DNA from: Escherichia coli
Lineage (GTDB): Bacteria; Pseudomonadota; Gammaproteobacteria; Enterobacterales; Enterobacteriaceae
DNA: 64,000 bases
Assembly (NCBI RefSeq): GCF_045037415.1
Contig: NZ_CP173438.1
Strand: one strand, 5' to 3'
Below are positions 51,401 to 57,400 of this stretch, in pieces. How positions within the stretch are numbered: position 1 is the first letter of the stretch; every line of letters starts with the position of its first letter. Made by a program: the position numbers.

Positions 51401-54400
51401 TGGATAACAACTGGCTGATTCCGCTGCTGAATACCACCCAGCAACCAGCGCTTGCTGAACTGCGCGATCGCGCGACGCGTGAAAAACTGTTTACTGCGGG
51501 CTGGAGGCGAGCGGAAAAAAATGATGCCAATGATACCCGCGCTATCATTCAACGTCTGGTGGAGATCCGCGCGCAGCAGGCGAAACTGCTTGGTTTTCCT
51601 CATTATGCCGCATGGAAAATCGCCGATCAGATGGCAAAAACGCCAGAAGCAGCGCTCAACTTTATGCGGGAAATTGTTCCAGCGGCGCGTCAACGTGCGA
51701 GCGATGAATTAGCCTCCATACAGGCGGTTATCGATAAGCAGCAGGGCGGGTTTAGCGCGCAGCCGTGGGACTGGGCATTTTATGCCGAGCAGGTAAGACG
51801 TGAGAAATTCGATCTCGATGAAGCGCAGCTCAAGCCATATTTTGAATTAAACACGGTGTTGAATGAAGGCGTATTCTGGACTGCGAATCAGCTCTTCGGT
51901 ATTAAGTTTGTCGAACGTTTTGATATTCCTGTCTACCATCCTGACGTTCGTGTGTGGGAAATTTTTGATCATAATGGCGTGGGGCTGGCGTTATTTTACG
52001 GTGATTTCTTCGCCCGTGATTCAAAAAGCGGCGGCGCATGGATGGGCAATTTTGTTGAGCAATCAACGCTGAATGAAACGCACCCGGTAATTTATAACGT
52101 CTGCAATTATCAGAAACCCGCTGCCGGTGAGCCTGCGTTGTTACTCTGGGATGATGTAATAACCTTATTCCATGAATTTGGTCATACGCTGCACGGCCTT
52201 TTTGCCCGCCAGCGTTATGCCACGCTTTCCGGCACCAACACGCCGCGTGATTTTGTCGAATTTCCGTCGCAAATCAACGAACACTGGGCAACACATCCGC
52301 AGGTATTCGCTCGCTACGCCCGGCATTATCAGAGCGGGACCGCAATGCCTGACGAACTTCAACAGAAAATGCGTAATGCCAGCCTGTTCAATAAAGGGTA
52401 TGAGATGAGCGAACTGCTTAGCGCCGCACTTCTCGATATGCGCTGGCATTGCCTGGAAGAAAACGAAGCAATGCAGGATGTCGATGATTTCGAATTGCGG
52501 GCGCTGGTGGCGGAAAATATGGATCTTCCTGCTATACCGCCACGCTATCGCAGCAGTTATTTCGCCCATATTTTTGGTGGCGGATATGCCGCAGGTTATT
52601 ACGCTTATCTGTGGACGCAAATGTTGGCCGATGATGGTTACCAGTGGTTTGTTGAGCAGGGCGGATTAACGCGTGAAAATGGGCGGCGTTTTCGCGAGGC
52701 GATTCTTTCCAGAGGTAACAGCGAAGATCTGGAACGCCTGTACCGACAATGGCGCGGTAAGGCACCTCAGATTATGCCGATGTTGCAACATCGTGGCTTG
52801 AACGTATAAACACCACCAATGGCTGGCCTGGATTTATCGCCAGACCAGCCTCGTTATAGCAGTAATTGCAGCCGCTGGGCGAGGGCAAACTTCACCGCTA
52901 ATGCGAATGCCGTTTCGCAGTCGCCAGCAAAATTACTTTTTTTGTATACTCTTCCGTTATAATAATTTTCAAATTCAGCCGGACCAGATGATCAACATTA
53001 GCGGCAGTCTGGATAAGAAAAGCGCGCCGGCCGTCGTTCGGGTCACTCATTTGCAGAAATAAAAATAAATTAGCCTGATGGCCTGAACTACTGGGCCATT
53101 AGGGTATTGGGTTATGCTATTTGTCATCCTTTTAATTGCGATAATGCAGAGTTAATTTATAGAATTAAACACTTTTTTATCTGCTGATTTTGTTTTAAAT
53201 CACAATGTTATCTCAGAGATGCTCATAACTTCGGATTTCTATGAAAATATTGACGTAATTTTGCTTTTCTCTCGTTAGAATAGCGCGCACAAGGAACTGT
53301 GAAAAAGGAGTGGCAATGATCAAGAAGACAACGGAAATTGATGCCATCTTGTTAAATCTCAATAAGGCTATCGATGCCCACTACCAGTGGCTGGTAAGTA
53401 TGTTTCACAGCGTGGTCGCGAGAGATGCCAGTAAGCCAGAAATAACGGATAACCATTCTTATGGACTGTGCCAGTTTGGTCGGTGGATTGATCATCTGGG
53501 GCCACTCGATAACGATGAATTACCTTACGTTCGGCTAATGGATTCTGCCCATCAACATATGCATAACTGTGGTCGGGAATTAATGCTGGCTATTGTTGAA
53601 AATCACTGGCAGGACGCGCATTTCGACGCTTTTCAGGAAGGGTTGCTTTCTTTTACTGCGGCATTAACCGATTACAAAATTTATTTGCTTACGGTCCGTA
53701 GCAATATGGATGTTCTGACGGGATTGCCGGGTCGTCGGGTTCTTGATGAATCCTTCGATCATCAGTTACGCAATGCTGAACCTCTGAATCTTTATTTAAT
53801 GTTGTTGGATATAGACCGATTTAAATTGGTTAATGATACCTACGGGCATTTAATCGGCGATGTAGTATTACGCACCCTCGCAACTTACTTAGCCAGTTGG
53901 ACGCGCGATTACGAAACGGTTTATCGCTACGGGGGCGAAGAATTTATCATTATTGTCAAAGCGACTAATGATGAAGAAGCATGTCGTGCAGGTGTCAGAA
54001 TTTGCCAGTTAGTCGATAACCATGCCATCACACATTCTGAAGGGCATATCAACATTACCGTGACTGCTGGTGTGAGTCGTGCATTTCCTGAAGAGCCTCT
54101 GGATGTGGTCATTGGAAGAGCGGACAGGGCAATGTATGAGGGTAAGCAAACCGGAAGGAATCGCTGCATGTTTATTGACGAACAAAATGTGATTAACCGA
54201 GTTTAAGCTCCGTTTAACATTCATTGAGAAAACTGATGCTACTGTGTCAACGATCCGTTATCAGTGCAGGAAAATGCCTGTTAGCGTAAAAGCAAAACAC
54301 AAATCTATCCATGCAAGCATTCACCGCCGGTTTACTGGCGGTTTTTTTTCGCCGTCATAAAAATCAGGCCCCTTGTACACAACTGTAACAAGGGGCCGGT

Positions 54401-57400
54401 TAGGTGAGGGATTATCTCCGTTCATTAGTCATCCCATTTGTGGCTGAAATACGCGGCCAGAAACCCAGAAAATAAAATTATTCCCAGTACGGCCATAAAA
54501 ACATTCATATTACCCAGCATTATTTGCCTCCGTTTATGGTGTGGTGTGTTTCCTCGCTTACCTTAATTTTCATCTCAATGAGAAAGATATTAGCAGAGGT
54601 AACCTAAACGAAGGCTGAATTAAATTCTTATTGTGTTCGACTTAAATCAACAAAGCGCGGGCTGCCCCCACGGTCTTGCACGAATTCCTTTTAACATCAG
54701 CACCCACGCAACAACGATCACCAACGCTAAGATGATAAACAGCGAGAAAGGCGGCAGACTGGTAAGTACTATGCCACTCACTAATGGGTTAATCGCAGCA
54801 CCAAGCCAGCCTAAAGACTGGGCGGAAAAATAGCTGGCTTTCATTCCTGGCGGCGCAATATGGTCAATCAACATATACTCGCCCGGCGCATAAATGATTT
54901 CACCGACAGTAAATACCGCAGCTGACATACCCCACATTAGCAGGCTGTTGCCGGAAAAAATAAAACCGACCAGCCCGATGACGAAACAGAAGGTGCCTGC
55001 TGTCATCAGCGCGCGGATGTTAGCCGGGTTAAGGCGGCGGCCTACGGAATATTGCAACGTAACTACCATGGCAGCATTCACCGGAAGAACAACCGCGACC
55101 ACCTTTTCGGCAAAATCACCATCAGCAATCACCATCACATATTGTGAAATGCATGAAGCAAATGCGCCGCTAACAAAAGAAGCCAGAAAGCCAGAGCAGG
55201 TAAACCACAACAGTGCTTTATCTTGTAATAAAACTTTCGGCGACCAGACACTGCCTGTTTCCGTGGCGATGATTTTCTCGCTGCGCTTTACCCAAATTTG
55301 AATGAAAAGCATGGGAAACGCGGAACAGATAGCTGCCAGCCAGAAGGGCAGATTGATGCTCTGCATCACCAACAGCGTGCCGAGTGGCGGACCGATGGTC
55401 CAGCCAATGTTGAGCATGGTGTAGTTGATTGAGAAAATCTTCGTTTTGCTGGTGGACGAAAGATTGTCGGCAAACCAGGCTTTCAGCACGGTAGCAAAAA
55501 CGGAGTAGGCGCAGTTAATAAGGGCAAAAAAGAGCACCACCAGCGTCACGTTATTCACTAAAGGAATGGCAATAAAACCGCTAGCGAAGGCGGTAATTGC
55601 CAGTAACATATAGCGTTTCTTGTCGAACTTATCCGCCAGGATACCAAAACCGAGGCTAAAAACGACGCCAATAGTGAGCGCAATTGTCATCGCATAACCG
55701 ATTAGATCGACACTCAGGCTGTACTGGCGACTCAAGTAAATGGTCATAAACGGCAGCGTAGCGCCGCGTCCGATGGTTAATAACAACGACGAGGCAAGAA
55801 GGGCGCTGGTAGAGCGTCGTAGGGATAAGTTCATTTGTCTGTCCGGCAGTGCGTTTCGTTATGTTTTGTTTTAGAGATGTAAAGGAATAGCATGGCAAAA
55901 ATCCGAAGTATAGCGACTTATTTGCGCATTAATGCCGTCGTAAACGGTGACTAACGAATCAACTGTTAAAGAAAAGTAAATTCAGCTAAGTTGATTGCTT
56001 ACAAAAGATGAAATTCAGAGGCGGTAGAATGTCGCGAAAAGATGGGGTGTTGGCGCTACTGGTAGTGGTTGTATGGGGGCTAAATTTTGTGGTCATCAAA
56101 GTGGGGCTTCATAACATGCCACCGCTGATGCTGGCCGGTTTGCGCTTTATGCTGGTTGCTTTCCCGGCCATCTTTTTTGTCGCACGACCGAAAGTACCAC
56201 TGAATTTGCTGCTGGGGTATGGATTAACCATCAGTTTTGCGCAGTTTGCTTTTCTGTTCTGCGCCATTAACTTTGGTATGCCTGCTGGACTGGCTTCGCT
56301 GGTGTTACAGGCACAGGCGTTTTTTACTATCGTGCTTGGCGCGTTTACTTTCGGTGAGCGACTGCATGGCAAACAATTGACGGGGATCGCCTTAGCGATT
56401 TTTGGCGTACTGGTGTTAATCGAAGATAGTCTGAACGGTCAGCATGTGGCGATGCTCGGCTTTATGTTGACCCTGGCGGCAGCATTTAGTTGGGCGTGTG
56501 GCAACATCTTCAATAAAAAGATCATGTCGCACGCAACGCGTCCGGCGGTGATGTCGCTGGTAATCTGGAGCGCATTAATCCCAATCATTCCCTTCTTTGC
56601 TGCCTCGCTGATTCTCGATGGTTCCGCAACCATGATTCACAGTCTGGTTACTATCGATATGACCACCATCTTGTCTCTGATGTATCTGGCATTTGTAGCG
56701 ACAATTGTTGGTTATGGGATCTGGGGAACACTGCTTGGACGCTATGAAACCTGGCGGGTTGCACCGTTATCGTTACTGGTGCCTGTAGTTGGACTGGCAA
56801 GTGCGGCACTATTGCTGGATGAACGCTTAACGGGTCTGCAATTTTTCGGTGCGGTGCTCATTATGACCGGGCTGTATATCAATGTATTTGGCTTGCGGTG
56901 GCGTAAAGCGGTAAAAGTGGGAAGTTAATAAGCCCCGAGATGTCGGGGCCAGAACAAACTACATAGCGTGTTGATTATAATAGGGCACGCCGAGCGCATC
57001 CGACTTATCACTGCCAGTACCCATGTGATTTAAATCAAACGGTGGTTGTTCCTGCGATGGGGGAACAACCACGACATTGCCACAGGAAGTAACAACCGGC
57101 TGCGTGGTTTGTTCCGCAACGCCCTGCGCAGAAAAGAGAATAAGCGCAGTTGCTATTGCGGATAAAAGTGGTTTCATGATTGCCTCAGTGACGTTGTCAC
57201 GTTATCAACTAGTTGTTGTAATGATTTAATGGATGTAAAAAGCGCGATTCACCCTGCATATTGGTCATCCGGTATTTATGCGGCGGAACATCAAAGTAAT
57301 TTTTGAAGGTTCGGGTCAGAGTTTGTTGGGACTCGAAGCCATATCGTTCTGCCAGATAGAGTATCGGCTCGTTACTTTCCTTCAGCTTTTGCGCGATTTC

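Follow-up and report, generated by a model that had tools for sequence, protein, structure and literature searches.

The closest described system to the stretch analysed here is the mgrR–mgtS–mgtT locus of E. coli K-12. According to the literature, the small RNA MgrR depends on PhoP/Q, and its targets include eptB, ygdQ and pitA. The genes mgtS and mgtT form a PhoQP-dependent operon, and the mgtS promoter shows PhoQP-dependent reporter activity (PMC11429745). The product of mgtT has been detected by ribosome profiling and by tagging with immunoblot. According to published work, MgtS, a 31-residue peptide with one transmembrane helix, acts on the transporters MgtA and PitA and so raises intracellular Mg2+. 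Both PhoP outputs, MgrR and MgtS, have PitA as a common target.

The window, the whole 64 kb stretch of DNA that was analysed, belongs to an E. coli chromosome and is 99.98% identical to strain SK1144. The interval discussed below is almost certainly this same well-characterised PhoQ/PhoP-controlled low-Mg2+ locus and is not new, and nothing was found that contradicts the identification of its three genes. It is flanked by dgcZ (diguanylate cyclase, 53316..54206, plus strand; ORF, with b1535 of K-12 and the SK1144 annotation) and by ydeE (MFS dipeptide exporter, 54647..55834, minus strand; ORF and annotation), which has a terminator-like hairpin at 54672..54656 in the terminator scan. Two convergent transcription units lie between them, MgrR on the plus strand and mgtS–mgtT on the minus strand.

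A sequence-only reading had presented the interval as an unannotated pair of small genes, mgtS and a candidate MgrR. All the features that it listed are present in the sequence where it had placed them. This is textbook E. coli biology with a substantial literature rather than an undiscovered pair, and a third annotated gene, mgtT, had been overlooked. All three genes are annotated in K-12 as mgtS (b4599), mgtT (b4775) and mgrR (b4698). The word “unannotated” applies only to mgrR in the SK1144 record examined: this RefSeq record, near-identical to the window, carries no mgrR feature, and mgtS is annotated there too. In the strains listed at 100% identity, only mgtT, mgtS and dgcZ are annotated under the match. 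Curated Rfam, Pfam or NCBIfam models exist for mgrR, mgtS and mgtT, so the locus has no discovery value. The interest lies in the fact that a 31-residue gene and a small RNA could be spotted from raw sequence, in the SK1144 record shown without mgrR, and in two refined details. These are the conserved register of the mgrR PhoP box and the coincidence of MgtT conservation with two terminators that are translated through.

The small RNA MgrR

The gene mgrR, which codes for a 98-nt Hfq-dependent RNA, occupies 54252..54349 on the plus strand, as placed by K-12 mapping, Rfam and folding. It aligns base for base with b4698 of K-12 (1622817..1622914), 97 of 98 nucleotides being identical, and the flanking genes dgcZ, mgtT, mgtS and ydeE are the same. 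The sole difference is C54255 in place of T at nucleotide 4, which is unpaired in the predicted fold and where both C and T are common among homologues. Rfam model RF01407 matches at full length (54218..54431), scoring 281.9 bits (gathering score 55; E = 1.8e-64). The plus-strand unit is MgrR, as the earlier reading had supposed; that reading had proposed a comparison with the MgrR sequence, with lack of identity counting against it, and identity is what was found. RF01407 bears the name STnc560, which we take to denote the same RNA as MgrR. The coordinate overlap seen here supports this, and a literature search for the two names together found nothing.

Four parts of MgrR are predicted: a stem-loop at the 5′ end, an A-rich stretch that stays single-stranded, a seed at nucleotides 51–68, and a Rho-independent terminator whose tail is U8. 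The fold has a z-score of −2.9. The 5′ stem-loop (nucleotides 5–35; 54256..54286, plus strand) appears in the minimum-free-energy fold and in the Rfam consensus structure. Its sequence differs between genera, and RNAalifold on a MAFFT alignment recovered the terminator alone and not this stem-loop. In the fold, the single-stranded A-rich centre is UAAAAGCAAAACACAAA; an A-rich Hfq distal-face motif precedes the seed, and an A-rich stretch of MgrR is described in PMC6239178. The single-stranded seed, AATCTATCCATGCAAGCA, lies at 54302..54319 on the plus strand (homologue search and eptB pairing). The intrinsic terminator (54323..54349, plus strand; scan, fold and conservation) has an 8-bp GC-rich stem with a 4-nt loop at 54323..54342, followed by T8 up to 54349. 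It is conserved throughout the homologues, among which G-U and compensatory changes occur. Judged by sequence, this Rho-independent, poly-U-tailed terminator and the A-rich, ARN-like stretch suggest a Class II sRNA. In such an RNA, on the basis of published binding work, the A-rich stretch would bind the distal face of Hfq and the U tail the proximal face.

The seed and terminator occur together in 98 loci from about 97–98 species of Enterobacteriaceae, found by an exact-match seed search that itself imposes the exactness of the 18-nt seed across loci. The predicted homologues are 85–104 nt long. Within E. coli, the locus is present in 5415 of 5426 complete genomes. Nucleotides 55–68 of MgrR pair with positions −7..+8 of eptB at −17.6 kcal/mol. 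By itself this energy lacks significance, being matched by 106 of 1000 seeds after shuffling. The computed site matches the one given in PMC6239178, U55–A68. The seed would pair with targets such as eptB, ygdQ and pitA over their start codons or 5′ UTRs and repress them, and this repression would change LPS modification and the phosphate/Mg2+ balance.

The mgtS–mgtT unit

The 31-residue reverse-strand ORF that had been read as MgtS is indeed mgtS (yneM). It lies at 54425..54520 on the minus strand and encodes the inner-membrane peptide MLGNMNVFMAVLGIILFSGFLAAYFSHKWDD (ORF, HMMs and annotation). The product scores 80.6 bits against the equivalog model NF033842 (cut-off 35) and 88.2 bits against PF22865 (cut-off 27), the profile match covering residues 1–31 of 31. 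The gene is annotated as b4599 in K-12 and as WP_000901367.1 at the same position in SK1144. A Shine-Dalgarno sequence GGAGG stands at 54532..54528, 7 nt upstream of the ATG, and the codon-position entropies of mgtS, given below with those of mgtT, show constraint of the protein-coding kind. Further upstream, the 5′ UTR contains the element TTAAGGTAAGCGAGG (54552..54566, minus strand), whose pattern TAAG.GAGG is more than 90% conserved in 37 mgtS upstream regions.

A second PhoP-box promoter, at 54587..54620 on the minus strand, would drive mgtS–mgtT. It consists of the PhoP-box-like sequence ATTCAGccttcGTTTAG at 54620..54604 (ATTCAG-N5-GTTTAG), an 11-nt spacer, and the −10 element TAATAT at 54592..54587. 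TT.A-N5-GTTTA and TA...T are conserved in the 37 loci.

The third gene, mgtT (54321..54425, minus strand; b4775 in K-12, also annotated in SK1144), is a 34-residue ORF, MNGDNPSPNRPLVTVVYKGPDFYDGEKKPPVNRR. It matches PF23498 over residues 1–34 of 34 with 96.3 bits (cut-off 27). Its start codon shares bases with the stop of mgtS at 54425 (TAATG). At the other end, the final 29 nt of the ORF lie opposite the 3′ end of mgrR, in antisense. Between these two ends lies a second intrinsic terminator (54356..54397, minus strand; inverted repeat and fold), in which a hairpin at 54397..54367 is followed by UGAUUUUUAUG at 54366..54356. It contains a 10-bp perfect inverted repeat (54367..54376 / 54388..54397) and in the minus-strand fold forms a 13-bp hairpin with UGAUUUUUAU after it; the consensus terminator scanner missed it because of a bulge in the stem. 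By inspection, the 38 mgtS-bearing loci that were compared have a hairpin of the GGCCCC...GGGGCC type with a T-run at the mgtS-proximal position. The T-tracts of this terminator and of MgrR meet tail to tail, no more than about 10 nt apart. The two terminators had been described as back to back, and their hairpins do lie within about 50 bp, but the second should not be read simply as the place where transcription ends: it is inside mgtT. The mgtT ORF begins at the mgtS stop, reads through the mgtS-proximal hairpin, and ends antisense to the MgrR terminator.

This arrangement raises the question of whether MgtT is a functional protein. There is a real, if less than even, chance that it has no function of its own. 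RNA elements would then account for its apparent conservation, and what is conserved would be the terminator hairpin together with a short ORF that is coupled to the stop of mgtS. RPLV and KGP of MgtT are encoded by the two arms of the hairpin and DFY by its T-tract; opposite MgrR, KK corresponds to the complement of the U8 tail and PPVNRR to that of the terminator stem. All 38 loci have the T(A/G)ATG stop-start overlap. The ORF that begins there ranges from 7 to 83 codons, and in roughly half of these loci its stop comes ahead of the hairpin or inside it. The codon-position signal is weak: entropies are 0.65/0.80/1.01 in mgtT, compared with 0.08/0.14/0.71 in mgtS (35 sequences). Deletion or overexpression of mgtT gave no phenotype (PMC11429745). 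On the other hand, the mgtT entropy does increase towards the third codon position, the N-terminal MNxD(N/S)P is kept in most of the 38 loci, a Pfam family exists for MgtT (PF23498), and the tagged protein is reported in the literature to be detectable.

A more specific proposal, which we consider improbable, is that the conserved unit is a stop-start-coupled mini-ORF, and not the MgtT protein. A ribosome translating it would run up against the mgtS terminator hairpin at its 5′ arm, and translation would set the level of mgtS readthrough past this terminator and antisense across the mgrR 3′ end. If so, MgtS synthesis would be coupled to MgrR output through attenuation together with transcriptional or antisense interference.

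The mgrR promoter

PhoP boxes are located at the −35 region (PMC7667037). The consensus quoted there is (T/G)GTTTA-N5-(T/G)GTTTA, with no more than 2 mismatches. The direct repeat that had been pointed out as PhoP-box-like, GTTTAAgctccGTTTAA, is present at 54201..54217 on the plus strand. It is the only such match in the 64 kb window, compared with 0.01 expected from shuffles, and the dgcZ stop TAA (54204..54206) lies within its first GTTTAA copy. As a PhoP box this register spans 54200..54216 (−52..−36) and has 2 mismatches to the consensus, both at the degenerate first position.

Comparison of 88 unique enterobacterial mgrR promoters, from 88 species, places the conserved motif one half-site downstream, where a PhoP box usually lies. 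Information content is high at −42..−36 and −32..−25, with a further peak at −7. The conserved motif is cGTTTA-acatt-CATTGA (54211..54227, −41..−25, plus strand), which has only one half-site in common with the repeat. In E. coli it has 4 mismatches to the consensus, and neither register there combines 2 or fewer mismatches with a position of about −41..−25. It appears fairly likely, on sequence conservation, that the PhoP dimer uses the −41..−25 register on the mgrR promoter and not −52..−36. The repeat is a good consensus match, though probably not in the register that PhoP uses.

A less probable alternative, though one to be taken seriously, is that E. coli PhoP acts through the repeat itself (54200..54216), a helical turn upstream of where boxes usually lie, or through all three phased half-sites (54201/54212/54223). 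It would account for a repeat that is statistically unexpected and has so few consensus mismatches, and some known PhoP boxes, such as those of ugd and mgtC, stand at other distances (PMC7667037). Salmonella has an upstream half-site-like sequence, GGTTAC, in 11-nt phase; Enterobacter has GGTTAA upstream of the box, but about 1 nt out of phase. Against this, the upstream half-site (−51..−46) holds almost no information across the 88 promoters (0.22 bits or less), and in Escherichia, where dgcZ is adjacent, it falls on the stop codon of dgcZ. It is absent or degenerate outside Escherichia and imperfect in some Escherichia, being altered in E. albertii and in one divergent E. coli. The −41..−25 register is the one kept in every genus.

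Downstream of the box, conservation marks an extended −10, TGcTACTGT (54237..54245, plus strand), 6 nt upstream of the annotated +1. Its TGnTA core is found in 90 of 98 loci and served as the anchor of the promoter alignment; the T at −7, which is unanchored, is 93% conserved. A sigma-70 scan found no promoter and no recognisable −35 hexamer at mgrR. The promoter would therefore lack a usable −35 hexamer and be activated by phospho-PhoP through the PhoP box together with the extended −10.

That the plus-strand hairpin is merely the dgcZ terminator, with no separate sRNA gene, had been named by the earlier reading as a case that would refute it and is very hard to credit: it is indeed the only terminator found downstream of dgcZ, but promoter motif, seed and terminator occur together in about 97 species, a DgcZ-like gene lies upstream in only 15 of 97 loci, a conserved promoter separates the dgcZ stop from the mgrR +1, and in K-12 a separate ncRNA is annotated here and has been studied biochemically (PMC6239178). 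The transcripts of dgcZ probably end at the MgrR terminator, because the scan found no other between the stop (54206) and 54323.

Comparison with described systems

Relative to K-12, the differences are few. MgrR of K-12 (b4698; RF01407, STnc560) has the same position between dgcZ and mgtS, the same seed, terminator and promoter motifs, and differs by the one substitution, C here for T at nucleotide 4. The MgtS translation matches that of K-12, the single nucleotide difference in the ORF being synonymous (GGG for GGT). MgtT of K-12 (b4775) is the same 34-residue ORF, with the same TAATG overlap and antisense overlap with mgrR, and shows no difference. Across genera, the length of the mgtT ORF varies from 7 to 83 codons.

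Canonical PhoP-activated promoters, such as those of mgtA and phoP, have a box that replaces the −35 element. The mgrR promoter shares their direct repeats phased at 11 bp and their lack of a −35. As in these promoters, the conserved box-like motif ends 12 nt upstream of the −10, and the extended −10 is conserved. Unlike them, mgrR of E. coli has a degenerate promoter-proximal half-site (CATTGA), and a third, better half-site sits a turn further upstream, at the stop codon of dgcZ.

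Identity of the locus

The window runs from malX to yneG on the E. coli chromosome and matches strain SK1144 (NZ_AP018784.2) over its full length, with 99.98% identity. Between dgcZ (53316..54206, plus strand) and ydeE (54647..55834, minus strand), the sequence-only reading had proposed an unannotated pair of small genes, consisting of a 31-aa minus-strand ORF, mgtS, and a convergent plus-strand unit resembling the sRNA gene mgrR. A scan of the whole window against Rfam at the gathering threshold gave a single match, the Hfq-binding RNA STnc560 (RF01407), which scores 281.9 bits (gathering score 55) over 54218..54431. 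No literature naming STnc560 and MgrR jointly was found.

The K-12 record annotates mgtS (b4599, 1622646..1622741, +), mgtT (b4775, 1622741..1622845, +), mgrR (b4698, 1622817..1622914, -) and dgcZ (b1535, 1622960..1623850, -), and their order and orientation relative to one another are those of the window. The two stretches align at 99% identity with no indels, which places mgrR at 54252..54349 (plus strand), mgtT at 54321..54425 (minus strand) and mgtS at 54425..54520 (minus strand). The mgrR genes differ by one base (C54255 against T; nt 4, unpaired in the predicted fold) and the mgtS genes by a single synonymous change. MgtS matches NF033842 (80.6 bits, cut-off 35) and PF22865 (88.2 bits, cut-off 27), and the 34-aa MgtT matches PF23498 (96.3 bits, cut-off 27).

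Because Rfam, the K-12 alignment and the protein families agree with them, both identifications were correct. Judged by these matches, mgrR and mgtS are both previously known genes and the locus is nothing new; with mgtS, mgtT and mgrR all annotated in K-12, the word "unannotated" does not fit that strain. The observation itself is confirmed as real, and its interpretation is supported after corrections for the register of the PhoP box, the missed mgtT and the earlier discovery of the locus.

Of 5426 complete E. coli genomes, 5415 carry the 411-nt region, and in 5057 records its identity is at least 99%. The complete SK1144 RefSeq record annotates mgtS and mgtT without an mgrR ncRNA feature, and in the further RefSeq records listed at 100% identity the only features under the match are mgtT, mgtS and dgcZ, so that the mgrR feature is known here only from the K-12 reference record. 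One retrieved contig labelled "MAG: Caldithrix sp." (L009) has mgrR, mgtT and mgtS matching E. coli. Its MgtT peptide and mgrR terminator region are identical to those of the window and its MgtS score is equal; the contig is almost certainly an E. coli contaminant of a metagenome-assembled genome.

The MgrR unit and its promoter

In the predicted fold of MgrR (z-score -2.9), an open A-rich centre separates a 5' stem-loop from the terminator. The strong plus-strand terminator of the sequence-only reading was recovered by a terminator scan as a stem at 54323..54342 followed by T8. When the 18-nt seed AATCTATCCATGCAAGCA (nt 51-68 of the sRNA) was searched for exact matches in one genome per species, 106 stretches were returned, and 98 loci among the matches have a terminator 3' of the seed. 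Nearly all of these loci belong to Enterobacteriaceae, including Escherichia, Salmonella, Citrobacter, Enterobacter, Klebsiella, Raoultella, Kluyvera, Kosakonia, Lelliottia and Leclercia, while about 8 matches are chance occurrences in unrelated taxa, which is expected for an 18-mer.

Every enterobacterial match has a GC-rich hairpin and T-run 3-8 nt 3' of the seed, with varying loops and some varying stem pairs, and the predicted sRNA length ranges from 85 to 104 nt. Applied to 42 homologues aligned with MAFFT, RNAalifold recovered the terminator alone (1/7 pairs compensatory); the 5' stem-loop was not recovered since there are too many indels for a sequence alignment. The hairpin might instead be only the terminator of dgcZ, and in E. 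coli it is the sole terminator after that gene. This explanation fails, since a DgcZ-like gene lies directly upstream of mgrR in only 15 of 97 loci, which argues for an autonomous unit.

The proposed PhoP-box-like direct repeat, GTTTAAgctccGTTTAA, is present at 54201..54217, with the dgcZ stop codon inside its first copy as seen in the sequence and ORF listing. No other such match occurs in the 64 kb, where chance alone would give 0.01. A sigma-70 scan of 54000..54800 found no promoter; this result is expected for activator-dependent promoters lacking a -35 element, and is thus not evidence against one. A first PhoP-box pattern, built on the register of this repeat, mostly found no match in the homologues. 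That failure, which came from assuming the register, led to an analysis of the register itself.

For this analysis, 88 unique homologous promoters were stacked without gaps and anchored on the extended -10 (TGnTA). Positions -42..-36 (YYGTTTA), -32..-25 (TTCRTTGA) and T-7 have a high information content; over the upstream half-site of the repeat (-51..-46) it is at most 0.22 bits. In the window, the conserved motif reads cGTTTA-acatt-CATTGA (54211..54227; -41..-25). It ends 12 nt 5' of the -10 hexamer TACTGT (54240..54245) and so occupies the -35 region, the usual position of PhoP boxes (PMC7667037).

The repeat's own register (54200..54216; -52..-36) is one helical turn upstream. It has 2 mismatches to the PhoP consensus, against 4 in the conserved register, and is thus the better match. 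The conserved register lies one half-site downstream, and only the central half-site is common to both. The E. coli promoter therefore holds three phased half-sites. Conservation favours the downstream register, which may well be the pair used by PhoP.

Two MgrR copies occur 1.6 kb apart (1438-1455 and 3032-3049) in Enterobacteriaceae bacterium RIT691 (L017). Seed and terminator are common to both; upstream of the copy adjacent to mgtS, the sequence differs and is not alignable with the PhoP-box promoter.

mgtS, mgtT and their terminators

MgtS increases intracellular Mg2+, according to references listed in 10.1101/511675. Alignment of 37 regions upstream of mgtS gave a conserved box, ATTCAGccttcGTTTAG (54620..54604, minus strand), followed after an 11-nt spacer by a conserved -10, TAATAT (54592..54587). 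The 5' UTR contains an element, TTAAGGTAAGCGAGG (54566..54552, minus strand), that is more than 90% conserved in the 37 loci; it resembles a Shine-Dalgarno sequence and is followed by no start codon. The coding signature of mgtS is clean, with codon-position entropies of 0.08/0.14/0.71. Of the 98 loci, 48 have mgtS and mgrR in convergent orientation; in Enterobacter, Klebsiella, Raoultella, Lelliottia and Leclercia, no mgtS lies within 1.5 kb of mgrR.

A second terminator had been placed back to back with that of MgrR. The GC-rich hairpin is present at 54367..54397, followed by UGAUUUUUAU on the minus strand; the terminator scan missed it because of a bulge, and it was recovered by repeat search and folding. 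Overlooked was mgtT, which is translated through this hairpin. Its start codon shares an A with the mgtS stop (TAATG, a 1-nt overlap), and it ends within the sequence complementary to the MgrR terminator, the last 29 nt being antisense to mgrR. Ribosome profiling with stalled initiation complexes first revealed MgtT, and tagging confirmed it (10.1101/511675). The mgtS-mgtT operon is described as PhoQP-dependent, and deletion or overexpression of MgtT gave no phenotype (PMC11429745).

All 38 unique mgtS-bearing loci that were examined (54356..54425, minus strand, in the window; L005-L110 among those retrieved) have a T(A/G)ATG overlap of stop and start codon, and by inspection a GGCCCC...GGGGCC-type hairpin and T-run occupy the same position in each. 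Most keep a mini-ORF starting MNxD(N/S)P. From the overlap ATG, the ORF extends for 7 to 83 codons, and for about half of the loci its end lies 5' of the hairpin or within it. The residues conserved in MgtT coincide with arms of the two terminators: the arms of the mgtS terminator hairpin correspond to RPLV and KGP, the complement of the MgrR U8 tail to KK, and that of the MgrR terminator stem to PPVNRR. Codons 2-8 have a weak coding signature (0.65/0.80/1.01). Variable length, this coincidence and the weak signature also allow another reading, although quite an unlikely one: what is conserved would be a coupled mini-ORF that acts on termination, and not a protein of 34 aa.

In eight loci, mostly from Kluyvera spp. 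(L022, L031, L046, L050, L051, L062, L108, L109), mgtS ends about 5 nt from the MgrR terminator, with neither a separate mgtS hairpin nor a detectable mgtT. The MgrR hairpin may therefore be a terminator shared with mgtS there.

Comparison with K-12 and with published MgrR targets

A scan of the window found no tRNA genes. Its sole tandem repeat (58125..58185; 21-nt period, 2.9 copies, 68% matches) lies in the marR-marC divergent intergenic region and presumably represents the marO operator repeats. The SK1144 record annotates uidC (about 6793..8059) and an ynfF-like gene (about 36487..38056) as frameshifted.

K-12 has ydeJ and ydeI intact between dcp and dgcZ, whereas the closest RefSeq record annotates only fragments here (about 52854..53062), a partial 2-oxo-tetronate isomerase and a C-terminal YdeI remnant; there is thus a deletion or replacement in the lineage of the window. 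In K-12, the Qin prophage lies in the region of ydfJ and rspAB. In the window, ydfJ is intact directly after rspAB (about 45774..47141 and 43471..45716), so the prophage is absent.

On the minus strand (about 27604..28088), the gene after asr encodes a 27-aa "hypothetical protein" resembling ydgU. The asr-ydgU operon is among the low-Mg2+, PhoQP-dependent small-protein operons (PMC11429745); if the ORF is ydgU, the window would hold another small ORF linked to PhoP, its second.

At low Mg2+, PhoQ/PhoP induces MgrR, a Class II Hfq-dependent sRNA of 98 nt that represses eptB and ygdQ via nt U55-A68 (PMC6239178; PMC4651636). A further target is pitA (PMC12721325). Pairing of full-length MgrR with eptB by RNAduplex gave a long, uninformative duplex that 270 of 500 shuffles could match. 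With the single-stranded centre, the best pairing joins nt 55-68 to -7..+8 of eptB at -17.6 kcal/mol, an energy that alone is not significant. The predicted site of the window's MgrR is nonetheless the published MgrR-eptB site, U55-A68.
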